DNA of 24,263 bases, from IMG/VR virus record IMGVR_UViG_3300027743_000484, positions 1 to 24,263 of that record; one strand, written 5' to 3'. Under the pieces are notes generated by a model that searched no databases, had not been told where the DNA came from, and saw only the letters and a program-made list of their open reading frames with translations. Below are positions 2,055 through 24,263 of the stretch, piece after piece. The position numbers and the translations under genes were made by a program. Each line of letters opens with the position of its first letter. The first letter of the stretch is position 1. Source of the stretch: a virus (taxonomy: Duplodnaviria; Caudoviricetes).

Positions 2055-3074
2055 TCAGAGCGTGCCGCCCGACTCGATGCGGATGTACTTGGGGCCGCTG
2101 GACACCATGGTGGCGGAGCCGAGCAGCCGCGCACCGAACATGCCCTTCCAGCCCACCTCGGCGAGCTGGGCGAGCGGATCGGTGTGATCACCACCCGGGC
2201 GCACCATGTACGACCGGATGGTCTGGACGTCGCCGACCGCCCACGCGCCGGGGCCGAACACGAAGGTCGAGTAGACCTTCGCGCTGGTCGCGCCCACGGT
2301 GCCGAGGTACGTGCCGACGGGGGTCTCGATGAAGCGGACGCCGTACAGCCGCCCGATCTCGCCCGCGAACAGCTGATCCACCGCGCCGTACTTGGCGGCC
2401 TCGATCCAGCCACCCACGGCGGTGTCGCCCATCAGATCGAAGATCATGTTGGGGTGGACGAACGCGTGGTAGTAGCCGTCCGCGAAGGTCGGCACGTTGG
2501 CCGCCTTGAGGGTGGCCACGGCCTCCCTGATCTCGGCTGCCGTGAGCTTCATCGCGGAGGTGATGGTGCCGGTGCTGGTGGCCGCACCCGCCCACTGGAC
2601 GTTGGTGCCCGCATGGAGCACCTGTGCGATGTAGTTGTCGAGCGTCTGCATGGCGTTGTACGCCACGCGCTCGGCAGCCACCGAGAACAGGTTGTGGGGG
2701 TTGAGCGCCAGCGCGACATCGGAGATGCCGACGAGCCGACCCGCCTGATAGGCGACCAGCTCCTCGTATCCGATGGTGATGGGCTCAAGGAAGGGCCTCT
2801 GACCCTCGACGAGCCACGGCACGGTCCCGGGGGCGGGCGGCGTGGGGATGGGCAGCGTGATGGGCAGGTCACCGTAGGAGATGTACCTGATCTTGTTGGT
2901 GCCGGGCACGATGTCGCCCGTCACGTAGCCGTCCGCCGCCATGTAGCGGACGACCTTGCGCAGGTTCTCCGCGATGTTCTGGCTGACCAGTGCGGTGACG
3001 GTGTTGTCGAAGTTGGTCGTCTGCGCTACGCCACCCGTACCGATGGGCTGGCCAGCGACGATGACATCAGGCAT
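2055..3074 (-). CDS. Major capsid protein (N4-gp56-like family, HK97 fold), 339 aa
   Basis: Family-typical motifs: EG..P, 'IREAVATLKAANVP..DGYYHAFVHP...DL', 'GEIGRLYGVRFIETP', 'VYSTFVFG..AW', 'DPLAQ...VGWK'. GAGGA RBS. Follows the scaffold gene. Confidence 0.9.
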   Translation of the reverse strand: MPDVIVAGQPIGTGGVAQTTNFDNTVTALVSQNIAENLRKVVRYMAADGYVTGDIVPGTNKIRYISYGDLPITLPIPTPPAPGTVPWLVEGQRPFLEPITIGYEELVAYQAGRLVGISDVALALNPHNLFSVAAERVAYNAMQTLDNYIAQVLHAGTNVQWAGAATSTGTITSAMKLTAAEIREAVATLKAANVPTFADGYYHAFVHPNMIFDLMGDTAVGGWIEAAKYGAVDQLFAGEIGRLYGVRFIETPVGTYLGTVGATSAKVYSTFVFGPGAWAVGDVQTIRSYMVRPGGDHTDPLAQLAEVGWKGMFGARLLGSATMVSSGPKYIRIESGGTL

Positions 3075-9600: not shown

Positions 9601-11643
9601 CAAGAGGGTGTAGCGGTGGACGAGGTCGCGGAGTGCGGTCAGGCGGGCCACCTCCACTTGGTCGCCCGCTGCCGCAGCAGCCTCGATCTTGGACCCGTAG
9701 GCGTTGGCGTCGAGCGTCCGCGACTCGATCATGTCGTGGACCGAGCGCCCGTAGAACAGGCCCTCGGCGAGCGCGAGCCGCTTGTCGTTGCCGCCCTTGA
9801 TGAACTTGGTGGCGGCCTCGCGGCTCATGCCCGTGGAGGCCACCAGCCGCTCGATGGCGATGCCCTCCTGCTCCTCGCGGAAGACCGTCCGGGCGCGTGC
9901 CGCCTCCTCGGGGGTCAGGTGGGAGGTGTCGAGGACGTAGTCGGGCATGGCCCGCGCCGCCTCACGCTTGGACTCGTTGACGAGCACGTCGGGGGCCATG
10001 AGGTTGACCTCACGGATGCGTGCGTTGGGCGTCGCATCGGCCATGTTCTCGGGCAACCCGCCGCGCGCCTTGATCTGCTTGACCATCGAGTTGCGGTGGA
10101 CGAGCGACATCTCGCTGTTGGCCATCCACGTGCCGAGGCTCTGGATGAAGCGCGCCTGTGGCACGCCGAGGGCCTTGGCCAGCGCTCGCACGTTGCCGTA
10201 GCCATACGCGTCGAGCGCGCCCCGGGCGTGGGCGTCGGAGCGGAGTGCGCCCACCATGTCCGCCGCGCGGTCGGTGCCGAACACCCGGAAGGGCTCGTTG
10301 AGCACACGTGCCACCGAGCCCGTCGCCCGGACGATGGGCTCCATCCGCACCACGGCGCGCTGTCGCCGGGTGAGGGTCCCCTCCGCGTACTGCAACGCGT
10401 CGTCCATGAGCGCCGGGTCGATCTCGCGGATGCCGTCGCGGACCCACTCGTTGAACACACCGGCCCGGCCCCGGGGCGGGTTCAGTGGGTCGGTCGCCGC
10501 CTTGGCCAGCGCGGCAGCCTGCTCGGACGCCGCTTCGAGTGGGGTCAAGGGGGACTGGGTCCTGATGTCGTTGGTCGTGCGTGCGAGTGCCTTGGCGGTC
10601 GCCGCCGCGTGGGCCTCGGGCGCTACCTGCGCGACACGCGCGTTGGCACGCGCCGTGCGCAGCGCGAGCGACCCGCGCTCCATGGCCCCGAGGGCGGCCC
10701 CGGTGCCGAAGGAGCCCACGATGATGGGGTCGGAGACCATGGACAGGAAGAAGTTGGCGAAGGCGTCGTTCGTGAAGGCGTAGCCGAGCTGGGTGATCTC
10801 GTCGAGGAACTGGTCGTGCGTGAGGTCACCGCTCAAGCGCCGCAGGCGCACCTCCTCCAAGGGCTGGGGGAGCGAGTTGGCAGGCGCGTTGAGGATGGTG
10901 TCCTCGACGTTGCGCAGACCCGTGCCCGCGTACGTCCGCGCGATGACCTGCTGGGGCATGCCCAGCACGCCCAGCGCCCGTTCGAGGATATTGGCGTCGG
11001 GCATCATGAGCGGGCTGAACATGCGCGGCATGCCCAGCGCCTCCATGTACTCCTGCTCGTGCATCCGCAGGTACTGGCTCATGTAGCGCAGCGCCGTGTC
11101 CGGGTCGTCGAGCGCGAGCTGCTTGATCTGCTGGGTCTGTGCGGTCACGGGCAGGCGGTCGAACGCCTCCTGCACGTCGGGCACCCACGGCAGGGGCACG
11201 TGCCCGGCCAGTTCGAGGGGCACGTCGAGCACCTGCCCCACGCCATGCGCGAGGCCCACGAGCGGGTCCCGCGCGAAGCCCGGCAGCGCACCCGTGAACT
11301 GCTCCACGAGCCCGCCGATGATGCCCTCGGCGACACCCATCCGGGGGGCCAGCCCTTGGAAGGGCGTGTTCTGGGACAGCGGTGGCCCCACCATCGGCTG
11401 GCTGATGTTGGTCTTGCCCAGACCCCGGTAGGGCGTGCCCACACGCTGGGTCGGCGTGGGCCCATCGCCACCATCGGGTGACCCGCTCGCGTAGGGCCCT
11501 CGGACGGGTCGTCCGCTGAACAGGTCGTAGGTCGAGAGGGCGGGCCCGATGGTCGCCCCGTTCATGCCGTAGTTGCGGCCCATGGGCGTGATGGCCTCGA
11601 ACTCCGACGCGTTGTGACGCGCGGAGAGACCCCCCCTGTCCAC
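3697..11643 (-). CDS. Giant (2648 aa) multidomain virion/ejection-type 'polyvalent' protein with HExxH metallopeptidase-like and ART-like regions
   Basis: Long uninterrupted ORF with GC3 bias in the structural operon. Contains 'ADPSSIVHEFAHEF...HEEYLAREFEHY...APTPGLKAIF' and 'LWHTT...ISLTYD...EHELRV'. Function is inferred. Confidence 0.8.
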   Translation of the reverse strand: MDRGGLSARHNASEFEAITPMGRNYGMNGATIGPALSTYDLFSGRPVRGPYASGSPDGGDGPTPTQRVGTPYRGLGKTNISQPMVGPPLSQNTPFQGLAPRMGVAEGIIGGLVEQFTGALPGFARDPLVGLAHGVGQVLDVPLELAGHVPLPWVPDVQEAFDRLPVTAQTQQIKQLALDDPDTALRYMSQYLRMHEQEYMEALGMPRMFSPLMMPDANILERALGVLGMPQQVIARTYAGTGLRNVEDTILNAPANSLPQPLEEVRLRRLSGDLTHDQFLDEITQLGYAFTNDAFANFFLSMVSDPIIVGSFGTGAALGAMERGSLALRTARANARVAQVAPEAHAAATAKALARTTNDIRTQSPLTPLEAASEQAAALAKAATDPLNPPRGRAGVFNEWVRDGIREIDPALMDDALQYAEGTLTRRQRAVVRMEPIVRATGSVARVLNEPFRVFGTDRAADMVGALRSDAHARGALDAYGYGNVRALAKALGVPQARFIQSLGTWMANSEMSLVHRNSMVKQIKARGGLPENMADATPNARIREVNLMAPDVLVNESKREAARAMPDYVLDTSHLTPEEAARARTVFREEQEGIAIERLVASTGMSREAATKFIKGGNDKRLALAEGLFYGRSVHDMIESRTLDANAYGSKIEAAAAAGDQVEVARLTALRDLVHRYTLLGAREMSLDDAKELLGIVESGAADAANRAREFINRFDVLHQNFERMYDEDGRLIEDAVLLDRLAVWLRDNISGGEDGVSSFPTVVDYDTLGDSLKSFIDENRRVNGGEQFAYRIAVAPAAKDQWRVSTDATGRLVGVNPWVEATAESAPAFVPTNWDTQRNRLFSPIRGEKLLFQARSRFIRRATEVHNLGRREAINLFEAVRKTASERNIQPRGLSMDEFRGIVDGVAEGLSPNLRQRLGDDGLALLTAQAFEGEMATVGLSVKLTGKMKTRSAGMGNWVGVVSEKLYPMMRFTANPIFQMQEWLEPYFFNIIRGVRPGLQWTAEDRAVLAMLDRWKLGTMFSDQAEYAYTAAQGWMSTHRPETSFGPGGQIAIANEKRMKVRDVKDRKMLNYIRDVKADSGQRWKRYMLNSAPAQWAEMEQHYGTTNAGEIAVRYWIEKGVHHADDPHYQTFLATGYIPNSIGKPHQVLMQPLAKTLGYRDPIALRKAISDGGLTEAQFRAHPVVSTFDPEFADRAWRTANFSSPEEWFDSLASSMRKGGRSAIEIDLSTRLARNMAQAGARAKGITLDEWMATHFAGKPVWVDSQRELPRAAYAQTMTSMREDIRTARRTYAGLHGGLPQRSADAAVTERAYRLLGGGPTETPVLIADRTIRAAEQAALGDGVPQMAEGILEVGTESFPMGFATDNTDDMLNSLATTVQEAGSRPTDLHEEMLAAVQTVTQLLSDEQVATLLRQNVVAHERIGMLPVTEGFVTDVVPSEVASWPGVDSYMRRALPDDLALYGHDGQGGGGLWHTTTRTDPVTEQGLRSRREVNAQGLGGGPDNTISLTYDEDHARLIAERQRVFAGAARGELTGDQVWDHFISTEWEHLYQRPYDALRTLDPDGDYRAPHWKDATDAEWRKAQRYFAREWDKRVAAGQHRSNWEMIQRADNAAHRMQGHWNNYNLQQGDPERIGGIIVVGDPDVAFASHAATPPESIRTVQVAVRRKPGRPIDWVQGEHELRVWPEDIQTLGDIEPSVSKVQGTMQDMRAEVAARMFAGYVRALDEDVAPGTAIQQMADVLHDISLKQKADPRGRTVVDHPLVAELVGDWEAGAPAAMSPFARDVMDQTFGAPKRSATMRRGTAPSFSVQAKAAAIDRHALHALGHWTPEYATAIARRMVKAGDATDIDDALGQLSARAGYDVRKPNPNQADPEVLYEWGVQKANALANAANAEDWGGRSDWTPGEMATLASTHARRIAEQHASEVEGGTVLRKALVTEVSPGFRRAPEWTNPLPPDELVSGPGSTLEGTLPQWDDLTDDQMRDVSRQVSLMAMDFVEQATGVRFVGSPIDIVMPRGGGAAAVSPLTGWSLMALTDEAADSAMDMIGATLQLDEVWGTKYTDALTADPSKGIHWALDLRLPSTATARHWDAFARYAAEAYPDGTRVLSARDTEGRQVVRIVWQPEEGVAQTTLDDFLAGMREAEAGIEDELHVGDWVNGLPDEFEWMRETILPVELDRHPVQVKMTTNRGADHPRVGSTFAHDERMARSLTRGGMTPEEAANDAIGRTYLDRLRARGDYGAEVAASVVGRWRDQAKSHIDDAYEQYAPSLAGPAAGRARLASLGGGARGETVQYQRNARGVRAALAYTDGARSTLYVLEHADPSSIVHEFAHEFARSLDESGKRALMTAYDATPTASGGRRRTSRQWGRQHEEYLAREFEHYVAGGAKTAPTPGLKAIFNAYGEWGRTNLEGGVRNVPQEVREVFDEWFRVADQSEPKATFDADEYRWMQALMQSFTMGEEQAHTRHYYKRGRSWTERSVNHPYLGMYPASYMWGKVLPAMIRFLVAKPFGVDAPFAGALMAKHAAFYAQLMIQTNPEMQDFIEKHPETIRMFQMMLPGTPWDIPVNMPAWARHAAEDAAQNRLRTEQGLAAQPTDFGKIIEDTVAYAFGGPRAIASPFNLMSEWNGANTPEPDDAANVWSQIGL
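4680..4967 (-). CDS. Candidate nested overlapping gene (+1 frame) inside the giant protein gene, 95 aa, acidic/Pro-rich
   Basis: GAGGAGG RBS 9 nt upstream of ATG 4967. Host-frame codons switch to A-ending (GGA, CGA, GCA, CTA) over this span. Confidence 0.5.
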   Translation of the reverse strand: MRSDEPISTDSGPEGTTEQRWRQAWSVGGGIKPSRTSTMRTNSTRRASQDQPQGEPGSPPSEAEPEERPSSTSATPEGSEQPLPTPTEPEAPSTS

Positions 11644-11646
11644 GGG

Positions 11647-14600
11647 TTACCTGCCCCAGCCCCGGATACCACCCCTGCCGGTGTAGCCCGACTGGAACTC
11701 CCGCTGCTCCTGCTCGGTGGTCGGCGTGCGCTGGCCGTTCGCCCGCAGGAGGGTGTCGGGCAGCCGCTGTGGGGTCGTCTTGGGTCGTGGCGTTGGCTTG
11801 GGCGGCGGCGGCGGCTTCTCGGGCTCGGGCGGCTTGGGGGTCCTGACCACCGGCTCGGGCGTGACGCGCGATCCGCGGATGGGCGCGATGGGCTTGCGCC
11901 CACTCGGGTCGAACGTGACCCGTGAGCCCATGACCTTCTCCTGATTGGCGCGCAGCCGCTCCCGCTCGGCCTCCTGTGCGTTGATGTTGCCGAAGCCCGT
12001 GAGCCCGAACAGCGACGGCAGCTTCATGACCGGACGGTCGCCCGCGTCGGCGTCGGGGTCCGGGGTCGCACCGTCGCGACGGTTGAGGATGGAGAACTGG
12101 GCGAGCCCGCCCCACTGGGTCGGGTCGCCCTTGCCACCACCCCAGATGAAGGGCCCGATGGGCACGTCCTCGTCATCGGTCACGGCGTTCGGGTCCTCGT
12201 CCTCGAACGTGTCGGTGATGCCCGGCGCGTTGGGCGCACCCCGCGATGCGCCGCCCTTGCCACGCGCGCTCTTGCCACCCGGGTGGTTGCCCGTGGCCGT
12301 GTCCGCGACCTCGGGCGGCACGCCATCGCCTTGGAGGCGGTCCGAGGTGTAGGTCGCGTTGTCCTTGTCGGCGTTGCGATGGATCGCCAGCACCTCGGCG
12401 TTGAGTTCCTGCAACCGCTGCGGGTCCCGGGCGAGCGAGGGGTCCGCGATGAGCAGGCCGTTGATGATGTCGATGGGCTCCAGCTCGGCCATGGCTTGGC
12501 GGCTCGGCTGGTCCCGGCCACCCACGAGCGTCTGGTACGTGGAGAACGTGTCGTCCTGCTCGACGGTCACCTTGTTGGTGCCGTCGGTCAGGCCGTTGCG
12601 CCCGAGGAAGTTGCCGAGGAAGGCCCCGATGCCTGCGGCGGTCTGGACGCCCTGCGCCACCAGCTCCTGCCGACCGGTGCGTGATCCCAAGCGGGTCTTG
12701 ATGATCTCCTGCCGGGCGGTCTCAAGCTGCTCGCGGATCATGCCGTGGTTCTGGGCCTGATTGGGGTCCTGTAGCTGGAGGTTGAGCTTGCGGATGCCCT
12801 CGGCCAGCTCGTCGATGCGCTGCTGGGGGTCCTTCCACGCGGGACGATCGGGCTCCTCGCGCTGCTGGGAAGGCGTGCTCTGGGTGTTGATGCGCTCGTC
12901 GTTGAGGGCACGCTTGACCTCACCGAACGCCACCTGATCGGGCTGGGAGGTGGGGGTCCGGTTGGAGGGGTTGAGCGAGGAGTCGATGATCTCCTCGGCG
13001 CTCTTGCCCGCACGCGCATCCTGCACCATGCGGGTCCACAGCTCCTGCGTGACGCCCCGGTCCTTGAGGTACTGGGGGATGTCGGGGATGGGCGTGGTCT
13101 TGGTGGTCTCACTCTTGCCGCCGAACCAGCGCGCAGGCGCATCGCTGCGTTCGCGTGCCCGGTCGATGCGCTCGTTGCTGACCTCACCGGCCCGCATCTT
13201 GTCGAAGCCGCCGCCGCCCTGCTGCCCGCTGCGACCACTGGTCACGATGCCCTGATCGATGAGGTAGCGCTGGTTCGTGGGCGTCAGCGCCTCGAATGCC
13301 TTGCGCTCCTCGGCGCTCCACTGCGACGTGTCGAGCCCCGTGATGCTGCTCACGAGGTTCCGGGCAGCCGCCGCATCCGGTGGCTGCGGCGTGGTGCCCG
13401 CGATCTCGTCGGCCCGCTCCTCCCCGAAGCGCACGACGTCCGTGAGCGCGTTGCGGGGCCGGTCCTCGTAGATGGGCTGGCCGTTCGCGTCGGTGCCGAC
13501 GACCTGCACGGTGCCCGTGCCTGTCGTCTGGTCGTCCGCGACGGTGATGATGACCTCGCCCCTGTCGTTGGTGCGCGTGCTGCGCACGAGCCCGGGGCGG
13601 ATGAGGTCGCTGCCGTTGCTCCCCACGGGCGCATCGGTCCACTCATAGGAGCCGTCGTCGCGGAACACCTGATACTGCTTGGTGCCGTCGGCCCGCGTGA
13701 ACAGGAAGGCGACGATGCCCGACTGGGGACCCTGCGTGTCGGGGTTCGCACCCGTCGGGGTCTCCAGCCCCGTGACGTTCTCCTGCGCCCCCACCTGCAC
13801 CCGGACGGGCTGGCCCACGCGCACGATGGTGATGGGCCCGGAGCCCGAGTCCACCTCCTTGCCATCACGGTCGCGATACGTGGACCCGTGGGCCTTGACG
13901 ATCTCGACCGCCGTGCCCCGCCCGGTGGCCACCTGCCCCCGTGGCACCACGCTGCGCTTGACGGTGCCGTCAGCCCCGACCTCCTCAAGGATCACGTGGG
14001 TGCCCTTGAGCAGCCGCTCGTTGTCCTCGATGTCCTGTCGTGCCAGCTCCGCGATCCGGGCGTCGCCTTGGGTGCCGCCCTGCGCGGCGGGCAGGTTGCC
14101 CTCGCTGTCGCGGATGTCGCCGACGTCCTGACTGATGGCGGTCGAGGTGCCCGAACGGTTCTCGGCGGCCTTGTCCCCACGCAGGATGCGCATGTCCCGG
14201 GTGATGTCACCCGTGAGCGTGTTGGCCCCGTTCCTCTCGGCCCTGCGGCGGATCGCACCCAGTTCCTTGAGCGCGGTGGCCCGGATGGCCATGCGCTCGT
14301 CGGGGCTCTTGCCCTCGTCGTTGATGCCCGCATCGAGCGCGTCCTGCCACACCTGCTCCACGGCGGTCGCGAGGTCGGCGTTCGAGTGGGTCTTCTGGTA
14401 GCCGCTCCAGACGCTCGCGCTGTTGTCCGCACTCCGCTTCCAGTCGTTGTAGCCCCGCCGCTCGGCGAGCTTCGACTGCTTCTTTGCGCCCTGCTTGGCG
14501 CGCCCGTACACCGCCGAGAGGTAGTCGCTGTCGAGGTGGCCCCGGAAGTGGTGCGGATCGGCGCGCCGGAGGGCCGGTTCCCACACCTCCTTCCACTGCT

Positions 14601-15255
14601 TGGCGTACTGGGGGTCGGTCTCGACCTTGGAGAAGAAGTCCTCCATCATCGTCATCTCGCCGCCGCCCAAGGCTTGGGTCCACTGGTTGCGCGATCCGAT
14701 GTCGGCGGACGTGAGCATCTGGTTGACGACGTCATCGACCGTCTCGGCGGGCTTGATGTAGGTGTCGTTGAGGCTGTTCCACTGGCTCTGGAACTGCTCG
14801 AACTTGGACTGCTTGGCCCCACTGTTGCGGGCCTTGGCGGCAGCTTTCTTGAAGCGTGCCGCGTTGGTCATGAGATCACGCCAGATGGCCGAGTTGCGGG
14901 GCACCTTGCCCGCCTCCTCGACGTAGAACTTGGCGACGCCCAGCTCCTTGATCTTGCCCTGCGTGTAGGCGAGGGTGACCTTCTGCTCCCTGATCTGGAA
15001 GCGATAGTTGAAGATCATCTGGTCGTAGTAGTCGGCCATGGGGTCGTCGTCCGACACCTCGTTCCGACGCTTCTGCCACCAGTTGAGGAAGAACTGGTCG
15101 GTGACCTTCTGCCCCTCGAACTTGCCCCCGTGGTTCCACGCGAACTCGACGTTGCGATCACGCTGGTTCTCGTACTGCGCGATCATCGACGCGATGGTGG
15201 AGGAGAGGTCTTGCGCCTCGGCGGGCAGACGCCCGAAGCGCCCGGTGCGGGCCAT
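11647..15255 (-). CDS. Large (1202 aa) hypothetical protein, probable internal virion/ejection protein
   Basis: Long ORF with GC3 bias, tightly packed in the operon (3-bp gaps). Helical basic N-terminal third, beta-rich middle, low-complexity Pro-rich C-terminus. Confidence 0.75.
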   Translation of the reverse strand: MARTGRFGRLPAEAQDLSSTIASMIAQYENQRDRNVEFAWNHGGKFEGQKVTDQFFLNWWQKRRNEVSDDDPMADYYDQMIFNYRFQIREQKVTLAYTQGKIKELGVAKFYVEEAGKVPRNSAIWRDLMTNAARFKKAAAKARNSGAKQSKFEQFQSQWNSLNDTYIKPAETVDDVVNQMLTSADIGSRNQWTQALGGGEMTMMEDFFSKVETDPQYAKQWKEVWEPALRRADPHHFRGHLDSDYLSAVYGRAKQGAKKQSKLAERRGYNDWKRSADNSASVWSGYQKTHSNADLATAVEQVWQDALDAGINDEGKSPDERMAIRATALKELGAIRRRAERNGANTLTGDITRDMRILRGDKAAENRSGTSTAISQDVGDIRDSEGNLPAAQGGTQGDARIAELARQDIEDNERLLKGTHVILEEVGADGTVKRSVVPRGQVATGRGTAVEIVKAHGSTYRDRDGKEVDSGSGPITIVRVGQPVRVQVGAQENVTGLETPTGANPDTQGPQSGIVAFLFTRADGTKQYQVFRDDGSYEWTDAPVGSNGSDLIRPGLVRSTRTNDRGEVIITVADDQTTGTGTVQVVGTDANGQPIYEDRPRNALTDVVRFGEERADEIAGTTPQPPDAAAARNLVSSITGLDTSQWSAEERKAFEALTPTNQRYLIDQGIVTSGRSGQQGGGGFDKMRAGEVSNERIDRARERSDAPARWFGGKSETTKTTPIPDIPQYLKDRGVTQELWTRMVQDARAGKSAEEIIDSSLNPSNRTPTSQPDQVAFGEVKRALNDERINTQSTPSQQREEPDRPAWKDPQQRIDELAEGIRKLNLQLQDPNQAQNHGMIREQLETARQEIIKTRLGSRTGRQELVAQGVQTAAGIGAFLGNFLGRNGLTDGTNKVTVEQDDTFSTYQTLVGGRDQPSRQAMAELEPIDIINGLLIADPSLARDPQRLQELNAEVLAIHRNADKDNATYTSDRLQGDGVPPEVADTATGNHPGGKSARGKGGASRGAPNAPGITDTFEDEDPNAVTDDEDVPIGPFIWGGGKGDPTQWGGLAQFSILNRRDGATPDPDADAGDRPVMKLPSLFGLTGFGNINAQEAERERLRANQEKVMGSRVTFDPSGRKPIAPIRGSRVTPEPVVRTPKPPEPEKPPPPPKPTPRPKTTPQRLPDTLLRANGQRTPTTEQEQREFQSGYTGRGGIRGWGR

Positions 15256-15392: not shown

Positions 15393-15542
15393 TCAGAGGA
15401 GCGCGAGGATGACGAACACGGCACCCAGCGTGCAGACGCCCCACGCGCTGATGTCCTGCCCGTTGGAGCGCAGCGCATCGACCGCGCCGAGGATGATGGC
15501 AATCGCGCCGCCCACGATCATGACCAGTTCCTCGTTGCTCAC
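15393..15542 (-). CDS. Small two-helix membrane protein, 49 aa (not in ORF track)
   Basis: GTGA overlap with the portal stop and GAGGAGGAG RBS. MSNEELVMIVGGAIAIILGAVDALRSNGQDISAWGVCTLGAVFVILALL has two hydrophobic segments. Confidence 0.7.
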   Translation of the reverse strand: MSNEELVMIVGGAIAIILGAVDALRSNGQDISAWGVCTLGAVFVILALL

Positions 15543-17620
15543 AGCTCCTCCTCCTCGGGCACTGGCGCGCCGCCGATCTCGTTCTGGAACATGAGCCGGT
15601 TGCTCGCCTCACCCTCCTTGATCATGGTCTGGGCGAGCATGGGCTCCGCGCCCGCTGCCGCCGGGCCACCGGGGGTGGCCTCGGCACCCGGCATCACCTG
15701 TGCGCCCTCGCCCTGCATCGACTCATCACCGACCGCGCCGCCCTGCTCCTGACCGAACGCGGCTGCCGCCTGCTCGGGGGACACGCCCTCCTCGCCCGGC
15801 ATCGGCTGGCCCATCTGCTGGGCGGTGATCTGGAGCTGCTGCATCGTGCTCATGAGGGCCGCCTGCACCTGCACGTCGGCGGGGAACAGCGAGGCGTCGG
15901 TGCGCTCACCCTTGACGATGGCGATCTCGGACTCGGGGTCCTCGACGCCCACCGCGTCCATGCCCCGCTCCAAGCTCCAGAGCTTGGCGTTCACGAGGTT
16001 GATGGCCATCGTGGCGGTCTCGAGATCGTCCCGTGGGGACAAGGACGGGTTGTCGGTGACCAACCGTCCGACCGACTCGAAGATGGGCTTCAAGGCGGTG
16101 TTCTTCTCGGCCCAGATGATGCCCGCCAGCTTCCAGATGTCCCTGCGCCAGCGGTACAGCAGGTCGCGCTTCATGCGCGAGCGGGTCTCGTAGTTGGCCA
16201 CCAGCGCGTTGATGGCCTTGCTGGAACTCAGGACGTTGTTGGGGGCGAGCCCGCGCAGCAGGTCGTTGAGCCCACTCACGTCCTGTAGCTCGCGGTCGAT
16301 GCGCGCGAGGTACTGCTCCGCTTGGAACGAGGGCATCCATGGCTGGATGGCCTCGATCCTGTTGCCCGCACCGGGGCCGACCACCTTGTTGGCCTGCGGA
16401 CGGAGTCCCGTGGGCACGATGTCGGGGGCTTCCGGGCCCACGAGCTGCCAATACTGTGCGTTCACGGTCTGGCTCATCATCTGGGCGTATTCGGAGAGCC
16501 GCTGCTCCTTCTCGCGGATGAGCTGCTCCACGTCGTACAGCTCGGAGCGCCCCGTGGGCAGGCCCGGCAGGTAGGTGTTGAACAGCGGGATGTAGGGGAT
16601 GGCTCCCCGGTACTCGCCGTGCTCCTCGTCCATGACCTTGTGGTCGCCCACGAAGATGCAGTTGCGGGTGACCATCGTGGTGGGCTCACCCACCTCGATA
16701 TCGTCCTCGTCCTTGGGCTCCCGGTACCAGTAGTCCCAGACCTCGACCATGGTCTGGGTGCTGTCCATGACCCCACCCGTGCGGTCGGTGCGCTGGGCGA
16801 GCGGGTCCGCGTGGGTGCCGTAGCCGCGCGTGGCCGGTGGCAGCACGGTGAGGTAGCGCTTGCCGTCCTTGCCCTCACGCCAGCCGCACTCAAGGCCCCA
16901 GTCCGCGAGCACCGCCTCGGGGGTCATGCGGTAGACGTACAGCGCCCAGTCCAGTCGGCGGTAGTCGGAACTGCCCCAGCCGAGGTACAGGTTGCGGGGC
17001 TGATCGACGATGGTGAAGCGGGGTGACTCGGCGTCCTCGTCCCACCACACCTTGGCGGCGGTCTTGCCGTACAGACCCTTGACCACACACGCCTGATGGG
17101 CCAGCTCCTCGAAGGCGACGTCGTCCTTCCACGCGAAGTAGACCCGCTCCATGGCCGCCGCCATCATCCGGCCCTGCTCGTCGGACACCAAGGGCAGGAT
17201 GTTCTCGATGGGCGGCACGCTCTGGAGCGCCGCCGGGACGTCCACGTACACGGGGTAGCTGTTGATGCTGATGTGGACGCGCCCGGGGATGCGCGCACTG
17301 GGGTGCTCGGGCCAGTTGTCCGCCCCGCCGCCGTTGGCGATGGTGGTCGGGTAGTACAGCTCGTCCCAGCGGTCGCACATCTGGGCGAACGCCTGCTGCT
17401 CCGGTTCGAGGGTCGCCTTGCGCGCCGCGATCTGGCGGTAGAAGTAGGCGTCGTCCTCGCTCGACCCGTCGCGCTTGAGGTCGTGGGGGCGTCGGTTCTG
17501 GCGCGTCTTGGGTGTCTGATGGACACGCGTATCGCTGAGTGCCGAGCTGGGATAGGGGACGACCGCCACGGGCGCGAGTGTGGGCCCAACGCGATGTGAT
17601 CGCAAGGCCCGCATATCCAA
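15539..17620 (-). CDS. Portal protein (podovirus/P22-like size, ~690 aa; start uncertain)
   Basis: Follows TerL. Contains 'G.YGKTAAKVWWD', 'VEVWDYW', 'HGEYRGAIPYI', 'GRSELYDV..L', 'LQDVSGLNDLLRG...SSKAI' and an acidic/Q-rich tail. Confidence 0.85.
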   Translation of the reverse strand: MDMRALRSHRVGPTLAPVAVVPYPSSALSDTRVHQTPKTRQNRRPHDLKRDGSSEDDAYFYRQIAARKATLEPEQQAFAQMCDRWDELYYPTTIANGGGADNWPEHPSARIPGRVHISINSYPVYVDVPAALQSVPPIENILPLVSDEQGRMMAAAMERVYFAWKDDVAFEELAHQACVVKGLYGKTAAKVWWDEDAESPRFTIVDQPRNLYLGWGSSDYRRLDWALYVYRMTPEAVLADWGLECGWREGKDGKRYLTVLPPATRGYGTHADPLAQRTDRTGGVMDSTQTMVEVWDYWYREPKDEDDIEVGEPTTMVTRNCIFVGDHKVMDEEHGEYRGAIPYIPLFNTYLPGLPTGRSELYDVEQLIREKEQRLSEYAQMMSQTVNAQYWQLVGPEAPDIVPTGLRPQANKVVGPGAGNRIEAIQPWMPSFQAEQYLARIDRELQDVSGLNDLLRGLAPNNVLSSSKAINALVANYETRSRMKRDLLYRWRRDIWKLAGIIWAEKNTALKPIFESVGRLVTDNPSLSPRDDLETATMAINLVNAKLWSLERGMDAVGVEDPESEIAIVKGERTDASLFPADVQVQAALMSTMQQLQITAQQMGQPMPGEEGVSPEQAAAAFGQEQGGAVGDESMQGEGAQVMPGAEATPGGPAAAGAEPMLAQTMIKEGEASNRLMFQNEIGGAPVPEEEEL

Positions 17621-17662: not shown

Positions 17663-19357
17663 CTACGACTCGACGAGCCAGTCCTCGACGGGCTTGGGCG
17701 GCCAGCCTTCGAGCGTGGAGGTGGGCAGCCGACCGCCGAGGAACTCGCGGTCGGTGATGACCCGGTTCTGGCGGCCCACGGGGTTGCTCGACTGGTCGAA
17801 AAACGTGAACGGCGAGGCCGGTGCGGCCACGACCTGCTGGTAGCGGACCATGACCCGTGCCGCCACCGCGAGCGCCATGACCGCGTCGGTCTTGAGCTTG
17901 CGGTCGGCGAGTCGGTAGGCCAGCAACTGGGAGCGCAGCTCCAGCCAGATGCCCGTGCGCGGGAAGCGCAGCTTGCCCTGCTCGATGAGGCCCTTGAGGT
18001 CGGTCAGGATGGTCAGCTTGCGCTGGCCGCGACCCCCGAACTCGACCGCCCGCAGGCCCGTGAGGTCACGCAGCGTGTCGTGGAAGACCTTGCCCCCGAA
18101 GCCCGTGGTGTCAAGGCCCGTGTCGCAGCGCGCACTGCCCTCGTCGTAGGCCAGATGGGTGTCCCGCACGAGGCCCGACACGGCGGTCACGGTCTGCTTG
18201 CCCTGCTTGCGCTGGGCGAGCACCCCGATGGCGGGCTGGCCCGCCACGATCTTGAGCACGACCGACCATGTCGAGTCGTGCGTGAGGGCAGGATCGACCC
18301 CCTGCACGTACCGACCACGCGGCTCGGGCTCCTGTCGGTGGGGCATGCCGTCCACGAAGCAGGCATCGACCGCCCGGGCGTCGAAGAACCCACGCTCGCC
18401 CTCGATGAAGTAGCCGTCGATGTTCTGGGGCACCAGATGTGGCTGCATGCCCGCGACCATCCGGTCGAACAGCTCGTCGCTGATGCCATAGCCCACGTTG
18501 TCGCGGGTGCTCATGCGCATGCTGATGCGGTCGGGGTCGCGCTGGGGGTCGTCGGGGTCGCCCTTGATCCACTGGTCGTGCCACTGGTTGAAGCCCTCGG
18601 ACGGTGTGGACACCATCACGAGCTGGCCACCCGTACTCAGGCGACGAAGGTGGAGCACCTCCTCCACGATGAACTCCAACGCAGGCTCGAAGCCACACTC
18701 GTCGAACGTGATGAGGTGCATGTCGCGCCCCAACTGCGACACCGCCTTCTCGCCCGAGGTACGGAAGGCGATGGTGCCACCACCGAGCACCTCATGCCAC
18801 GAGAAGTCGAGCGCTCCGCGCTGGCCCGTGATGCCCCAGACGCCCTTGCCCATGGCTTCGGTGAGGGGGCAGCCGTGGCTCTGGGCGTAGTGGGTGCCCG
18901 CCATGATGGCCCGGATGTCCTCGGCCACGATCTCGCAGACATCGACGCTGATGCCGAAGTGGTAGGCCGCGAAGCGGCGCTGGGCGTGGGCGTACAGCGC
19001 CCGCTCATCACCTTCGGCGGGTGGCGGGGTGCCGTACTTGTAGAGCGTGCCGTGGAGCAGCAGCACATCCAAGAGCAGGGTCTTGCCCGCACGGTTGCCC
19101 GACGACAGGGCGCAGGTCAGGTAGCGCGGTCGGTGGCCTGTGGCGTCACGCAGCAGCACCGACTCCGCGAAGGCGACCTGTCCCGGGTGGAGGGTGATGC
19201 CAAGGACGCCCTTGGCGAACAGCTCGATGTCGTAGCGCCCACGGCGCAGCGCGTCGGCGAGGTCAGGTGGTGGTGTCCGTGGTGCGGTAGCGGTTCTGGG
19301 GACTGGGGACCGGGATACGATCAGGACGTCGTCCTTCGATGAGTCGCTCGACGGCAC
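17663..19357 (-). CDS. terL: Terminase large subunit
   Basis: LHPGQ adenine-binding motif, Walker A SGNRAGKT, Walker B LITFDE, coupling motif STP, RNase-H nuclease GVDPA ... DTTG ... DAVMALA. Start placed at GTG 19357 (GGAG RBS); the ORF track extends it to 19405. Confidence 0.92.
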   Translation of the reverse strand: MPSSDSSKDDVLIVSRSPVPRTATAPRTPPPDLADALRRGRYDIELFAKGVLGITLHPGQVAFAESVLLRDATGHRPRYLTCALSSGNRAGKTLLLDVLLLHGTLYKYGTPPPAEGDERALYAHAQRRFAAYHFGISVDVCEIVAEDIRAIMAGTHYAQSHGCPLTEAMGKGVWGITGQRGALDFSWHEVLGGGTIAFRTSGEKAVSQLGRDMHLITFDECGFEPALEFIVEEVLHLRRLSTGGQLVMVSTPSEGFNQWHDQWIKGDPDDPQRDPDRISMRMSTRDNVGYGISDELFDRMVAGMQPHLVPQNIDGYFIEGERGFFDARAVDACFVDGMPHRQEPEPRGRYVQGVDPALTHDSTWSVVLKIVAGQPAIGVLAQRKQGKQTVTAVSGLVRDTHLAYDEGSARCDTGLDTTGFGGKVFHDTLRDLTGLRAVEFGGRGQRKLTILTDLKGLIEQGKLRFPRTGIWLELRSQLLAYRLADRKLKTDAVMALAVAARVMVRYQQVVAAPASPFTFFDQSSNPVGRQNRVITDREFLGGRLPTSTLEGWPPKPVEDWLVES

Positions 19358-19835
19358 GAGCGCTCCCGTCGATGACACGCGCAGGCGTGTGCTCACCAGA
19401 GCCACTCAGCAAGCGCGCCAGTCCCATGGCCAGCTCCCGGTCCTGTGCCCGCTCCTCGCGCCGGTCGATCATCTGCTGGGCGATGAGCCCCTGCTGGACG
19501 GTGGGATGGAGGTCCCCATCCTCGACCCGACGGCGCACGTCGTCGCGCACCAGTTCCGCGAGGTCGGGCTTGGCCGCGTAGCCCCCCGCGAGCTGGGCCA
19601 TGAGGTCCCGCTCGGTGGCCGGGAGCCGCGCGATCCAGTGCTCCCTGTGCTTGCTGATGGTCTCGGACTTGGTGGGCCAGTCGAGACCACGCATCTCGCG
19701 CTCGATGAGCGTCGGGTACTTGCCCGAGGCCAGTGCGCGGTCGATGGCCATGCGTCGGTCCTGCTCCCCGACGCATATCCCGCACTCGCCCTTGCCGGGC
19801 CGGTCCTTGGGCTCTCTGGGGAGGGGTGCGGTCAC
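19263..19835 (-). CDS. Putative terminase small subunit / Zn-binding HTH protein
   Basis: Directly upstream of and overlapping TerL. CGIC...KHREH potential Zn ligands around an HTH-like segment, with a coiled C-terminus. GAGGA RBS before GTG 19835 (track start 19892). Confidence 0.6.
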   Translation of the reverse strand: MTAPLPREPKDRPGKGECGICVGEQDRRMAIDRALASGKYPTLIEREMRGLDWPTKSETISKHREHWIARLPATERDLMAQLAGGYAAKPDLAELVRDDVRRRVEDGDLHPTVQQGLIAQQMIDRREERAQDRELAMGLARLLSGSGEHTPARVIDGSARAVERLIEGRRPDRIPVPSPQNRYRTTDTTT

Positions 19836-19892
19836 GGATGGGTCGGTCCTCGTGTGTGATGCCGAGGAGGGGCGACAGGAGGGAGGCATCAC

Positions 19893-20800
19893 ACTCCGTC
19901 TGCCACGACCTCCTCGGTCGGTGCGAGCGTAGCTCAGTCGGTCAAGGGACTACGTCGTCCGTCCTAGACGCTCTCTCTTGGCCTCACATCGCCCCCCGCT
20001 CCTCCCTGCACCCTCCTCACCCCCTCGAAGGGTCTGGGACCCCGGATACAGGGGGTCCCAGACCCCCCTTTCCCACACCCCGGGTCCTACCATCCCCCCC
20101 TCCCCCCCATCCCCCTCGAACCTATGGGGGGTGGGGACCGTCCCTCAACGAAGTTGAGGGACTGGCCCCCCTATGGGTAGGGATAGGGGGAGGGGAGGGT
20201 AGGACCACCATAGGTGGTCCACCCTCTGGGGACATGACATCCCTCTCCCCTATGAGGGGGACGGGGTCGGGTAGGTGGGACGTAGTCCCACCGTACCCTC
20301 CCCCTTCCCTCCGCGCGCGTGCGCGCGTGAGGGGGAGAAGGGTAGGGTCGGTGGCCCCCCATAGGGGGCCACCTCCCCTACTCAGATGGGAGGGCCCCCT
20401 TCGCCTCGGTCGTCGGCGGTGGTCGGGGACCCCCACCTTCGGTGGGGACGGGCTCCCTCGATCCGCCCTGTCCCCTCCGGGGACCGCCTCCTCCCTCGGC
20501 TCGTCCCCCATTGTGCTTGCACATGTCAAGGACAGGGTGTGTCCACAGCTAGGCAGTCTCTGACTGCCGTAGCTTGGACCCACCTATCTGTCCTCCGTGC
20601 GTGCGTCGTGAGCACACACACGCCGTCGGCGCGGTCTTCGCGCGCAAGCTCCCTGCGAGACACACACACAGACCGTTGCTCACCTTCGGTGAGCCGATGG
20701 CCGACCCGATGTGGTGGAATGGAAGCGGCGAACGACCGCCGTTCTCTACCGGCCCCAAAGGGGCTGGCGGCATGGTCAGTCGTCAGGAGGCATCCTTTCC
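19893..20800. promoter_or_regulatory. Non-coding divergence/control region between late (minus) and plus-strand gene blocks, rich in hairpins and G/C tracts
   Basis: No ORF with coding-like composition. Inverted repeats at 20030-20065, 20140-20162, 20202-20220, 20274-20292, 20350-20373, 20431-20447, 20470-20484, 20529-20594 and 20678-20694. Confidence 0.7.
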
Positions 20801-22405
20801 ATGGGAAACGTCGCAACCACACCGGTCCTCTCCGGCAGAGCCGGAGACAGTGGGGTCACGCCATCGAAGATGGCGTCACTCGTGAGCCGTGGCTCTGCCA
20901 CGGAGAAGTGGGGTCACGTCGCCAAGACCCCTGCCACATCGGAGATGTGGACGGTCGAGTTGTTCGGCGATGACGGTTCCACCGTCCATGCCAAGGGTGC
21001 GTTCAACGTCTCCGACGTTGACGACCGATGGTCGGCGGCGACGGTCGCCGTCCATGGTGATGCCAAAGGCATCAGCGTCGAGCGCTTGAACAAGATCATG
21101 CGCCTGCTGACCGACTCCGTCGGATCAGCACCCCGCATCGATCTGTACTGGAGGACCGGCAAGGCCGCTGTCCGATGCCCCGGCTACGCCGGGAGGACGA
21201 ACGTCCCGGTGTTGGTCCGTGGCACCACCCCCCTTGGGGGTGGCGACTGGTCATGGGACCTCGCCACCTTCGGTGGCTCCATCATCAAGCCCGGCAAGCC
21301 CCGCAAGGCACAGACGAAGTCTGTGAAGGCACCGGTCACCCCGGTCATCCCTGCACCGACTCCGTCGGTGGCTCCCAGCCCGGCACCTTCGGTGCCCTCA
21401 CCGAAGCGGGCGGAGCGCAAGGCCGCTCGACGTGCTGCCGCTGCGGAGCAGCGACAGGTCGCAAGCACACCGGTCGAGCCGAAGGCTCGTGAGGTCACGG
21501 CGTCGGGGTCTACGACCCCGGTCATCTTCGCCGATCCGGCGACCATCAAGCCCGGCTTCGCCGTCCACCACGACGCCACGATGCTGGCCGACCTCAAGCG
21601 CGAAGCGAAGCTTCATGCGTCAGGTCGGAGGACCGTCGTGCTGATCTCCGGTCCCACAGGGACCGGGAAGACGCTGACGGCGAAGCATGTCGCGGCAGAC
21701 GAAGGTCTGCCGTTCCTCAAGGTGGACGCCGTTGCCATGGCAACGTTCTTCGACTGGGTCGGCGGCGTTGGCCTCACCTCCGGTGAGGGTGTCCACACCG
21801 AGTTCCAGCCGAGCCTCCTACTGGAGGCTATCCGGGCTGACGGACCGTTCGGTGGCATCCGAAGGATGGTCCTCATCGACGAGGTCAACCGGGTCACCCA
21901 AGGCTCTAGCCTTGGGGCGATCATCCCCATGACGGATGGTCAGGGGACGGTGTACGTACCGGATGCTCGACAGAGCATCCCGGTCGATCCCGCCGTCATG
22001 TGGGTCATGACGGCCAACATCGGCGCTGCTTACAGCAGCGGCACGGTGCAGGTCGATCCGGCGATCATGAACCGGGTCACATCTCACCTTGAGGTGAGAT
22101 ACCCGGCGGCTGTCGCAGAGCGACAGATGCTGGTCGAGCAGGGTGGCTGCACGCAGGGCATCGCAGATGCCCTGATCAAGGCTGCGGCTCAGGTCCGGGC
22201 TGTCTACGACAGCGGTGCCATCGCCACACCGCCTGTCTCTACGAGACAGTTGATCGAGGCTGCGGCGAAGGTCGCCGTCGGGTGTGATCCCGTCCACGCT
22301 TGTGAGTTGGCGTTCGCTCACAACTACTCCGCCGAAGGCGGCAACGACTCCGAACGGGCCAAGGTCATGGTGGCGGTCCGCGCCGTCCTGACCGGGGTTC
22401 GATGA
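20801..22405 (+). CDS. MoxR/CbbQ/CobS-type AAA+ ATPase with an extra N-terminal domain and Pro/Ala linker
   Basis: Walker A GPTGTGKT, Walker B VLIDEVNR, sensor-I MTAN, Arg finger DPAIMNR, sensor-II STRQL. AGGAGG RBS before ATG 20801 (track start 20711). Confidence 0.9.
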   Translation: MGNVATTPVLSGRAGDSGVTPSKMASLVSRGSATEKWGHVAKTPATSEMWTVELFGDDGSTVHAKGAFNVSDVDDRWSAATVAVHGDAKGISVERLNKIMRLLTDSVGSAPRIDLYWRTGKAAVRCPGYAGRTNVPVLVRGTTPLGGGDWSWDLATFGGSIIKPGKPRKAQTKSVKAPVTPVIPAPTPSVAPSPAPSVPSPKRAERKAARRAAAAEQRQVASTPVEPKAREVTASGSTTPVIFADPATIKPGFAVHHDATMLADLKREAKLHASGRRTVVLISGPTGTGKTLTAKHVAADEGLPFLKVDAVAMATFFDWVGGVGLTSGEGVHTEFQPSLLLEAIRADGPFGGIRRMVLIDEVNRVTQGSSLGAIIPMTDGQGTVYVPDARQSIPVDPAVMWVMTANIGAAYSSGTVQVDPAIMNRVTSHLEVRYPAAVAERQMLVEQGGCTQGIADALIKAAAQVRAVYDSGAIATPPVSTRQLIEAAAKVAVGCDPVHACELAFAHNYSAEGGNDSERAKVMVAVRAVLTGVR

Positions 22406-22437
22406 ACCCCGTCAGCACACACACAGGAGGCATCGTC

Positions 22438-24263
22438 GTGTCATCACTCATCCCCACCTTCGGTGGGGACCCCATCCCGTGGGTCACGGACCTTTGGTCC
22501 GGTGCTCTCGACGGTCGGAAGCCCGACGTCGAGCGGTCCCGTGCTGCCTTGGCAGCACTCAACAGCATCGTCGCCGGTCTGTCGGATGACGACCGAACGT
22601 ACTCCGTACGTTTCAGCGGCGATGCCCTCACGACGAACACCCACATCGCCGCCAAGGTCGTGACCGTAGGTCACGGTCCGTTGGGTGATCCCAACCTGAC
22701 CTCCGGTCAGATCGCGGCGATCATGACCGGGCTCGCCTTCCACGAGATCGGCCACATCCGGCACACCCGCAAGGTCGAGCACGTCCTTGACTCCTACGGA
22801 GCCAAGGGGAGCACGCCATGGAAGCGGGCACAGCGTGTGCTCAACCTCGCCGACGACGTTCGTTCCGAACGTCTCAACTGTGTCGAGTTCCCGGGTCTCG
22901 CAGAGACCCTGCCGATCACCCTTCGGTGGATCGGTGAGCGCACCATCAAGCCCGGGATGCAAGCATCCCGGATCAGCACGTCCTTCGGTGTCGGCATCAT
23001 GGCGGTCCGCTACCCCGACTTCGTCGAATGGACGGGTCGCGAGGCGGCTCGCGACTGGTGGCAGGCATGGGCGGAGCGTGCAGCGGTCGCCCACACCATC
23101 CCGGCACTCCGTGCCGTGATGGACGAGGCGCTCGATCACATCGCCGAAGGCGATGACCTCAAGGACGAGCCCACCGAAGGTGGCGATGACGCCACCGAAG
23201 GTGAGGATGAGTCGGAGCCCGGCGATGACGCCACCGAAGGTGGCGACGGTCAGGGTGACGACGCCGATGGCGAGTCCGATGACGCCACCGAAGGTGGCGA
23301 GGGTGACTCCGACGGCGAGGGTGAGTCCGACGATGACGCCACCGAAGGTGGCGAGCAGGGTGAGGGCTCCGATGACGCCGACGGCGACGGCGAGGGTGAT
23401 GCCACCGAAGGTGGCGACAGCGCCGACGGTGAGCCCACCGAAGGTGATGACGATCCGTGGGCCGATGAGTCCGACGGTGATGCCACCGACGGTGAGCCCG
23501 GCGGCTTCAACCCGGGCGAGGCACCGGAACAGGGTTCCGGCCAGCGTGATGGCGATGAGCCCACCGACGGCGAGGATGCCGAAGGCATCGACGCGGAGTC
23601 GATGGTGCAGGACTGCCCCACCGATGCCGCCACCGATGGCACCGAAGGTGACGTGCAGAACGGCATCGACGCTGCCGTGACCATGTCACGGGGCGCGTCG
23701 GGCCACCGCTCCTACACCACCACGCTCACGGACTACCGTGGTCGCACCACGACCTACACGCAGGAGGTCAAGCGCGGCATCCCGGCACGGCGTGGTGGCA
23801 AGGCCACCACGGGTGGCAGTGAGGGCATGAGCTTCCTCCCACCTACGGTGGGTCAGCCCATGAACCCCACGGCCAGTCGGACCCAGCGCCCGACCCTTCG
23901 GGTCGGCGTGAGTCAGGCGCTGGCCGCTGCTATCGCAGCGTCCAAGCATGGTGATCCCCTGCCGACACCGGGTCAGCGTTCGGGTCGGCTCGACCGACAG
24001 CGCTTGCCACGGGTCGCCGGAGGCGACTGCCGTGTGTTCACGAACGTCGTGACGCCGGGACCCACGCGTATCCGGGCCATCGTGCTGCTCGACGCATCAG
24101 GATCGATGGACGCCGGGTCACAAGTGACCCGTGACCACACGGGTCGGGTGTCGGGGCACTTCGGCGCGACGCGTGCCACGGTGGCCGCACAGGTCGGCAT
24201 GGACCTCGCCGGGGCATTCGACCGGATGCGCAACGTGACCGCCGCCATCTACGCCCACAACGT
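22438..24263 (+). CDS. CobT-like VWA-domain protein with N-terminal HExxH metallopeptidase-like domain and acidic linker (runs off right edge; not in ORF track)
   Basis: AGGAGG RBS + GTG 22438, frame open to the edge. HEIGH (22741-22755), N..DD.R.E....FPG, D/E/G linker, SGRLD, MIDAS 'IVLLDASGSMD' (DASGS at 24091-24105). Adjacent to a MoxR-type ATPase. Confidence 0.9.
   Translation, partial: MSSLIPTFGGDPIPWVTDLWSGALDGRKPDVERSRAALAALNSIVAGLSDDDRTYSVRFSGDALTTNTHIAAKVVTVGHGPLGDPNLTSGQIAAIMTGLAFHEIGHIRHTRKVEHVLDSYGAKGSTPWKRAQRVLNLADDVRSERLNCVEFPGLAETLPITLRWIGERTIKPGMQASRISTSFGVGIMAVRYPDFVEWTGREAARDWWQAWAERAAVAHTIPALRAVMDEALDHIAEGDDLKDEPTEGGDDATEGEDESEPGDDATEGGDGQGDDADGESDDATEGGEGDSDGEGESDDDATEGGEQGEGSDDADGDGEGDATEGGDSADGEPTEGDDDPWADESDGDATDGEPGGFNPGEAPEQGSGQRDGDEPTDGEDAEGIDAESMVQDCPTDAATDGTEGDVQNGIDAAVTMSRGASGHRSYTTTLTDYRGRTTTYTQEVKRGIPARRGGKATTGGSEGMSFLPPTVGQPMNPTASRTQRPTLRVGVSQALAAAIAASKHGDPLPTPGQRSGRLDRQRLPRVAGGDCRVFTNVVTPGPTRIRAIVLLDASGSMDAGSQVTRDHTGRVSGHFGATRATVAAQVGMDLAGAFDRMRNVTAAIYAHN
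23172..23650 (+). repeat. Eight copies of CACCGAAGGTG (T-E-G) in the acidic linker
   Basis: Copies start at 23172, 23193, 23232, 23286, 23340, 23403, 23436 and 23640. Confidence 0.9.

Follow-up and report, generated by a model that had tools for sequence, protein, structure and literature searches.

The palindrome carpet and the genes beneath it

We analyzed a 24,263-nucleotide stretch of a Caudoviricetes genome (IMG/VR record IMGVR_UViG_3300027743_000484, positions 1 to 24,263; hereafter the window), in which a dense carpet of small, perfect DNA palindromes overlies a non-coding leader and two genes. The window is part of a complete, circular phage record of 46,749 bp (G001), to which it is 99.98% identical, and near-identical strains are present in the soil metagenomes X2 and X3. 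In the complete genome the carpet is restricted to about 33.4-37.4 kb, where it runs from the leader across a MoxR/CobS-like AAA+ gene and into a CobT-like vWA gene, most of which it covers. This arm is divergent from the terminase-portal-capsid operon. Carpets of this kind are seen in several uncultured soil and sediment phages. The carpeted arm contains the following features (window coordinates):

20030..24052, no strand: carpet of perfect short-loop palindromes, with ~24% of bases in arms or loops
Carpet unit, either strand: most often a 7-bp arm, a 3-nt loop and a 7-bp arm, with C:G closing pair and GAA, GTA or GGA loops
19893..20800, no strand: non-coding leader separating the terminase genes from the divergent early arm, carpeted from ~20030
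20796..20808, plus strand: start-codon hairpin with the ATG of the AAA gene as its loop; the stem is 7 bp in G001, L048 and L049, and 5 bp in the window
20801..22405, plus strand: MoxR/CobS-like AAA+ ATPase, 534 aa (PHROG 249, E 5e-22; PF08406, E 1e-9), ~25 hairpins
21648..21666, no strand: Walker A hairpin, overlying the Walker A codons of the AAA gene
22024..22040, no strand: hairpin made perfect by one additional codon (AYSSG in the window and in P0003)
22438..24263, plus strand, continuing past the window end to G001 position 38,021: CobT-like vWA protein (PF00092, E 2e-4; PHROG 1576), ~23 hairpins

Between 20030 and 23906, where the initial annotation had described a series of triloop hairpins, we found 69, 55 and 37 perfect inverted repeats with 3-nt loops at stems of at least 5, 6 and 7 bp, respectively. 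All 20 hairpins quoted there are exact in sequence and coordinate, but the count given (at least 35, one per 100 bp) was too low, and the carpet extends beyond 23906 to ~24050. The 19.9-kb structural part is poorer in hairpins, as had been suspected, with 54, 12 and 3 repeats at the same thresholds. At stems of at least 6 bp the density is 14 per kb in the carpet versus 0.6 per kb in the structural genes. A 3-nt loop closed by a C:G pair is indeed the dominant arrangement (49 of 55 carpet hairpins at this threshold); 34 of the 55 have C-GNA-G on one strand and 8 have C-ANA-G.

The shuffled controls proposed in the initial annotation lie far below the observed counts (stems of at least 6 bp, 200 shuffles each). 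The AAA gene contains 25 hairpins, compared with 0.5 after dinucleotide shuffling and 1.1 after synonymous-codon shuffling (maximum 5), and the vWA gene contains 23, compared with 0.7 and 2.4 (maximum 7). The leader (19900-20710) has 8 hairpins, compared with 0.3 after dinucleotide shuffling. Enrichment in the carpet extends modestly to loops of 4 nt (11 vs 1.5) but not to those of 5-8 nt. The structural part itself mildly exceeds its shuffles once stems of 5 bp are included (54 vs 25.5). A codon or composition effect is ruled out by these controls, and an assembly artefact by the nearly identical G001 record together with independent relatives that carry a carpet. Rare codons are raised in frequency within the carpet, in line with the initial annotation, and GC content at third codon positions is 0.78 there versus 0.90. 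Five hairpins, at 23171-23401, repeat a single unit within the repetitive acidic linker of the vWA protein. The repeat unit of this D/E/G linker (23150-23700) is itself a GAA hairpin, present in 7 core copies.

The AAA+ protein consists of a β-rich N-terminal domain, a Pro-rich linker, the AAA domain and a CbbQ_C domain, and its homologs are 534-550 aa long. Invariant R, N, W, R and P residues map to the N-terminal domain (20801-21298), whose predicted model (pLDDT 91) matched none of the known folds (best Z 5.2), a result that excludes nothing. The vWA protein has an N-terminal part predicted from its sequence to be of the metallopeptidase type (HExxH), the acidic linker and the vWA domain, within which hairpins become sparser. 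The window lacks one G near 20795 that is present in G001, X1 and X2, which costs 2 bp of the start-codon stem. With this G restored, the hairpin stands directly after the ribosome-binding site of the AAA gene. The leader is rich in long G and C runs (20080-20470), and a search against Rfam returned no family at gathering score, all 11 matches at E <= 1 being below it.

Carpeted and carpet-free relatives

We compared the window with related phages. About 450 viral contigs, none from a cultured phage, encode a related terminase large subunit (terL) and represent a large uncharacterised phage group. Our lineage counts cover the members with a readable AAA-vWA region, since most of the 80 terL loci kept from the 450, and the remaining records retrieved, stop short of it. 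Five lineages carry a carpet: G001 with L048-L050 (73% nucleotide identity), G002 (80 hairpins in 7.0 kb), G003 (29 in 5.3 kb), G006/G007 (61 in 7.9 kb) and G008 (44 in 4.2 kb). These carpets are 4-8 kb long, with one palindrome per about 70-180 bases, and the AAA proteins of the five lineages are ~30-45% identical. Six lineages, which the initial annotation had not considered, have the AAA-vWA genes without a carpet (G004 with L179, G009, G010, G011, G016 and L182), and G012 and G013 have neither AAA nor carpet. On the AAA tree the trait requires 3 changes, 2 of them forced by well-supported branches, and among 16 genomes the type of replication module does not track it. Short palindromes with loops of 4-7 nt are mildly over-represented (2-4-fold) in the same region of carpet-free relatives.

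In the AAA genes of ten genomes we located 69 hairpin sites, 15 of which are common to at least two lineages. The Walker A column has a hairpin in 5/5 carriers, with varying arms and loops, versus 0/5 carpet-free relatives. Residues conserved in the carpet-free relatives are kept at 63/86 positions under hairpins versus 218/324 outside, and thus no protein cost is seen at conserved AAA columns. A search for a cultured relative found none: terL had no match and the AAA protein only distant CobS-like ones. We found no carpet in the cultured phages T5 (1-14 kb), N4 (1-12 kb), SPO1 (1-16 kb), HMO-2011 (1-50 kb) and HTVC010P (whole genome).

A homolog search gave no name for the host. Relatives occur in metagenome-assembled genomes labelled Dehalococcoidia, Salinibacterium and Bdellovibrionota, possibly by mis-binning; one phage-sized family contig of 47.8 kb (L132, contig 4 of G021) in a Dehalococcoidia-labelled assembly provides a weak host hint. 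The low-GC subfamily without AAA also has a small cluster of triloop hairpins (L113 1-1000 and L125 1-1000), which in G014 lies ~9-11 kb from terL on its upstream side and reaches 5 and 3 hairpins per kb. In the G006 leader, ~4.7-5.3 kb from the terL start, several perfect palindromes have 13-16-bp arms, unlike the 7-bp carpet units, and are possible packaging or termination signals.

The carpet heads the early arm, in keeping with the likely early region of the initial annotation. In 5/5 carpet lineages its first hairpins lie in the non-coding head of the arm that runs away from the terminase genes (terS/terL), and it extends from there over the AAA gene and through most or all of the vWA gene. 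The leader (19893..20800) may contain a genome end or a packaging region. Contigs of relatives tend to end in its vicinity, and two linear records, G002 and G016, are split between terS and AAA. Among linear contigs of at least 15 kb, 17/25 end no more than 6 kb upstream of terL, compared with 6.4 expected, a count that excludes six terminal-repeat and two complete-length records and to which assembly or detection bias could contribute. In phages λ and T7, packaging finishes with the end opposite terS, and this end is also the first to enter the cell. By analogy, we predict with some confidence that the carpet marks the first-entering genome end.

On the other side of the leader lie the terminase and virion genes, all on the minus strand:

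19266..19892: likely terminase small subunit (terS), assigned by position, relatives having its homologs immediately upstream of terL; no hairpins with stems of at least 6 bp
17663..19405: terminase large subunit (terL), head of the structural operon; 0 hairpins with stems of at least 6 bp
2055-3074 (major capsid) to 15539-17620 (portal): structural operon with large virion proteins, carpet-free
3697-11643 and 11647-15255: two very large, family-conserved virion-region proteins of 2,648 and 1,202 aa

Matches in the terL/structural operon include PHROG 2 (E 3e-13), PHROG 156 and PHROG 1357. The 2,648- and 1,202-aa proteins, which may be ejection proteins, have no family, PDB or fold match, the fold search covering residues 560-1230 of the larger one. 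The initial annotation had likened the hairpins to the promoters of the N4 virion RNA polymerase, and in such a scheme the 2,648-aa protein would contain the polymerase. The shape of the unit and the presence of a very large virion protein are in agreement with this idea. However, no conserved polymerase motif was found across 18 rows, the protein has no sequence match in Pfam, PHROG, NCBIfam or the PDB, and Foldseek returned no match for residues 560-1230, the only part folded (pTM 0.50). Moreover, ~60 unoriented hairpins contrast with three in N4, and σ70-like promoters are located inside the G006 and G008 leaders. The likeness in shape thus holds, but with no phage RNA polymerase found in these searches, a promoter role appears extremely improbable.

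Rules of the unit and turnover of the hairpins

We pooled 328 hairpins from six carpets, of which those of L048 and G001 are not independent of each other. Written with their closing pair, the most frequent loops are CGAAG (84), CGTAG (44), CGGAG (27), CAAGG (19), CAGAG (18) and CAAAG (16). CGCAG occurs only 8 times, and GCA loops are 6-11-fold under-used relative to background. Deamination of the loop cytosine might cause this deficit, and the 'C-GDA-G' extrusion rule for N4, which is unconfirmed, might also fit it. When close strains are compared, many of the single-base differences in loops are swaps of C and T on the pyrimidine strand. The arms follow no consensus (213 distinct 6-mer arms among 266), which rules out a single repeated element or a protein-binding consensus.

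The stable loop is found on either strand, and both orientations are used about equally in G001 (17 sense vs 18 antisense), as the initial annotation had noted. This bears on the possibility that selection acts on the mRNA structure of the first operon, for stability or for shielding from RNA-targeting defence. The carpet does approximate one transcription unit, with the next σ70-like promoter ~500-620 nt past its end in G001, G003 and G008. However, the stable loop is often on the antisense strand, the stems are perfectly Watson-Crick paired, triloops prevail rather than GNRA/UNCG tetraloops, and the G006 carpet begins 1.4 kb upstream of its promoter. RNA versions of GNA loops are also reported to be far less stable (PMC13037366). 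An mRNA function is therefore very unlikely, and the feature resides at the DNA level, as first proposed.

Stem lengths at stable-loop sites peak at 7 bp, with 61, 73, 27, 7 and 2 stems of 6, 7, 8, 9 and 10 bp, and beyond 7 bp the counts fall at about the chance rate. The mode is 7 bp in coding and non-coding carpet alike, at similar densities (9.8 per kb coding vs 7.8 per kb non-coding). Next to 110 perfect 7-bp stems, single mismatches at stable-loop sites number 0, 5 and 0 at positions 2, 3 and 4, versus 15 and 11 at positions 5 and 6, so that the inner 4 bp are hardly ever broken. The distance between neighboring hairpins is also constrained. Against a null of local hard-core (non-overlapping) placement in five lineages with 2000 runs, gaps of 17-29 nt are depleted (12 observed; null 38+-5, minimum 23) and those of 36-65 nt enriched (94 observed; null 61+-6, maximum 81). 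Gaps below 30 nt are thus avoided and those of 36-65 nt favored. G003 alone shows no spacing regularity by coefficient of variation.

Alternatively, the hairpins could be supercoil-driven mini-cruciforms that extrude from the duplex as in N4, acting as torsional buffers or protein landing sites during transcription-driven entry, in which case the spacing would be the footprint of a structure-specific phage or host protein. The unit matches the N4 element, the spacers are 4 nt or shorter, and both the lack of an arm consensus and the gap distribution are compatible with such a scenario. But no reader protein was identified, the AAA N-terminal domain having no fold match and being present in carpet-free relatives as well, and sixty competing cruciforms could presumably not all extrude simultaneously. 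We consider this explanation unlikely.

We next compared close relatives. L048 and L049, which are 98% identical, differ by 2 exact loop inversions and 4 compensatory pairs, with 0.04 expected, and G006/G007 by 8 compensatory pairs, with 0.55 expected. Between the window and L048 (72% identity) we counted 27 compensatory pairs (7.8 expected), 72 one-sided changes (131 expected) and 3 inversions. The compensatory arm changes sought by the initial annotation are thus present in relatives, and the structure is conserved. Hairpin positions are more fluid: 31/53 keep their place between the window and L048 while density is maintained, and arm divergence matches that of the flanks (0.26 vs 0.28). 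In the 98% pair, changes are more frequent in loops than in flanking DNA (13/159 vs 55/2988), and in strain X2 3 of 11 listed substitutions are in loops and none in arms (12 substitutions in total in two carpet contigs). At 22024..22040 an inserted codon completes the hairpin, in keeping with a copy made of the opposite arm; the extra residue is found in 2/17 aligned homologs.

Homogenization of arms together with inversion of the spacer has been described as the signature of template switching, for which no adaptive explanation is needed (PMC8604942). Multi-base arm homogenization and spacer inversion are both found here. We conclude that template switching, a generator that the initial annotation had not considered, very probably creates the hairpins. 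Covariation is consequently no proof of function, because template switching alone gives compensatory changes.

Could the carpet then be a neutral by-product? Its end of the genome might become single-stranded in each cycle, by exonuclease resection with Sak-type annealing or by displacement synthesis, such that GNA fold-backs prime copy-back synthesis and functionless palindromes accumulate. Loop inversions, multi-base arm swaps and the templated insertion are all expected from such a process, and G001 encodes an exonuclease, a Sak/Rad52-like annealase and RusA, besides a primase/helicase pair. The flank-like divergence of arms, the loss of place of many hairpins, the fast loops, the mild palindrome excess of carpet-free relatives, the 3 changes on the AAA tree and the equal retention of conserved residues under and outside hairpins also speak for it, and a comparable reading is preferred by the authors describing palindromes in Nematomorpha (PMC6649704). 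However, if mutation were opposed by protein constraint, non-coding DNA should fill up with hairpins and have longer stems, whereas density and stem mode are alike. Outer mismatches, which should be the easier ones to correct by copying, persist, and inner ones are nearly absent. The missing 17-29-nt gaps have no obvious mutational cause. Three expectations of a purely mutational process thus appear to fail, and we regard a neutral origin as rather improbable.

A hairpin array at the predicted genome end and its known counterparts

Selection on DNA structure, as the initial annotation had proposed, is likely, because density and stem mode are alike in coding and non-coding DNA, inner mismatches are nearly absent and close gaps are avoided. 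The lowered third-position GC content and the raised rare codons of the carpet also speak for it. The stem cap, the perfection of inner pairs and the spacing all fit selection, while the compensatory changes by themselves fit template switching equally. Among triloops, only GNA is reported to form mini-hairpins, which resist 3' exonuclease and bind single-stranded DNA-binding protein (SSB) poorly (PMC13037366). In the mechanism that we favor, template-switch copying would create 17-bp mini-hairpin palindromes and keep them perfect, and selection would retain a spaced array in the first early operon and its leader, the predicted first-entering end. Whichever strand is unwound would quickly fold into hairpins that resist nucleases and exclude SSB. 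With one hairpin every 36-65 nt, unfolded single-stranded stretches would stay below ~50 nt, and the array might impede both the host nucleases that process DNA ends and the loading of SSB/RecA-type proteins until the phage has produced its AAA+/vWA proteins. This complete scheme of template switching plus a selected protective array is tentative, protection being its weakest step. Slightly better placed, although still short of probable, is the more general notion of a sequence-independent hairpin code, ruled by size and spacing and evolved repeatedly in unrelated phages and laid over their first genes, that armors the entering end against a DNA-processing or sensing machine of the host, is written by template switching and is switched on or off depending on the host.

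Several observations weigh against a selected array at the entering end. Template switching by itself is reported to yield compensatory and non-synonymous change without selection (PMC8604942). Six lineages maintain the AAA-vWA genes without a carpet, and no gene exclusive to carpet genomes was found among clusters from 16 genomes made with a rough gene caller. GCA loops are as stable as GTA loops, and therefore single-strand stability does not explain the GCA deficit. The contig breaks may merely mark a variable region, and in G006 and G003 the carpet is separated from terL by 2-5 kb of other genes. Sequencing depth of X2 contigs over the carpet is not doubled (8.3 and 9.3 vs 5.3-10.2 elsewhere), a weak test on contigs only that gives no support for a long terminal repeat. 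The first-entering ends of T5, SPO1 and N4 are carpet-free. Finally, single-stranded DNA hairpins can trigger the Lamassu and OLD defences (PMC11707656, 10.64898/2026.07.10.737580), which may explain the short stems or may count against a benefit.

The chemistry of stable GNA mini-hairpins was established decades ago. The carpet is a real, conserved and apparently undescribed feature: in agreement with the initial annotation, we found no description of such a hairpin carpet in the open-access literature. If selected, it would serve counter-defence or entry through the shape of DNA, by a mechanism not yet described, and would provide a sequence-only marker of the first-entering genome end. If neutral, it would be a natural reporter of single-stranded phage DNA and of very high template-switch rates that rewrite proteins.

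We compared the carpet to known systems. The first-step-transfer region of T5 and the host-takeover repeats of SPO1 are first-entering segments of a relative size similar to that of the carpeted region, with pre-early genes (T5 annotation), but they have at most 4 hairpins per kb. The doubled depth of such repeats, which are present twice per virion with fixed ends, is not seen in the X2 contigs. Perfect inverted repeats in conserved coding genes, gained, lost and perfected through template switching, are found in Nematomorpha mitochondria (PMC6649704). There, the arms are 15-142 bp and the mean spacer is 37 bp, many genes are affected, and no loop, size or spacing rule is seen in the passages on them; the carpet has 6-8-bp arms and GNA triloops in one confined region. 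The packing also recalls Streptomyces telomeres, which have dense palindromes with G:A-closed triloops at a linear end, nuclease-resistant when single-stranded. These telomeres are ~170-300 nt long, non-coding, sequence-conserved, of the GCA loop type and bound by Tap/Tpg (PMC4513846). The carpets, in contrast, are 4-8 kb, coding and poor in GCA loops, with variable arms that diverge like their flanks, and no Tap/Tpg-like match was found among the 15 window and 23 further G001 open reading frames scanned, many of these genes being unannotated.

In N4, extrusion depends on supercoiling and Mg2+. The N4 element is reported to extrude in vivo and to require C:G closure as well as the G and A of its loop (PMC4496689). 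The N4 promoters P1-P3 have in common with the carpet unit a short stem, a 3-nt G-N-A loop, C:G closure, variable arms and a location at the early genome end. They are three oriented, non-coding promoters for a virion polymerase, whereas the carpet consists of ~60 unoriented, spaced units over coding DNA with no polymerase found. The first 12 kb of N4 have at most 2 such hairpins per kb, and the N4 traits of a stable loop on the template strand (17 sense vs 18 antisense here), few copies (58 here) and conserved stem bases are not shared by the carpet. The mini-hairpins that prime on single-stranded DNA at the G4 origin and ssiA are similar in loop chemistry and in poor SSB binding, but they are single origin sites, and the biological uses of GNA mini-hairpins described in that source are likewise single sites (PMC13037366). 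Here, in contrast, kilobase arrays of GNA mini-hairpins with 7-bp stems, a perfect inner core and 36-65-nt spacing tile coding DNA.

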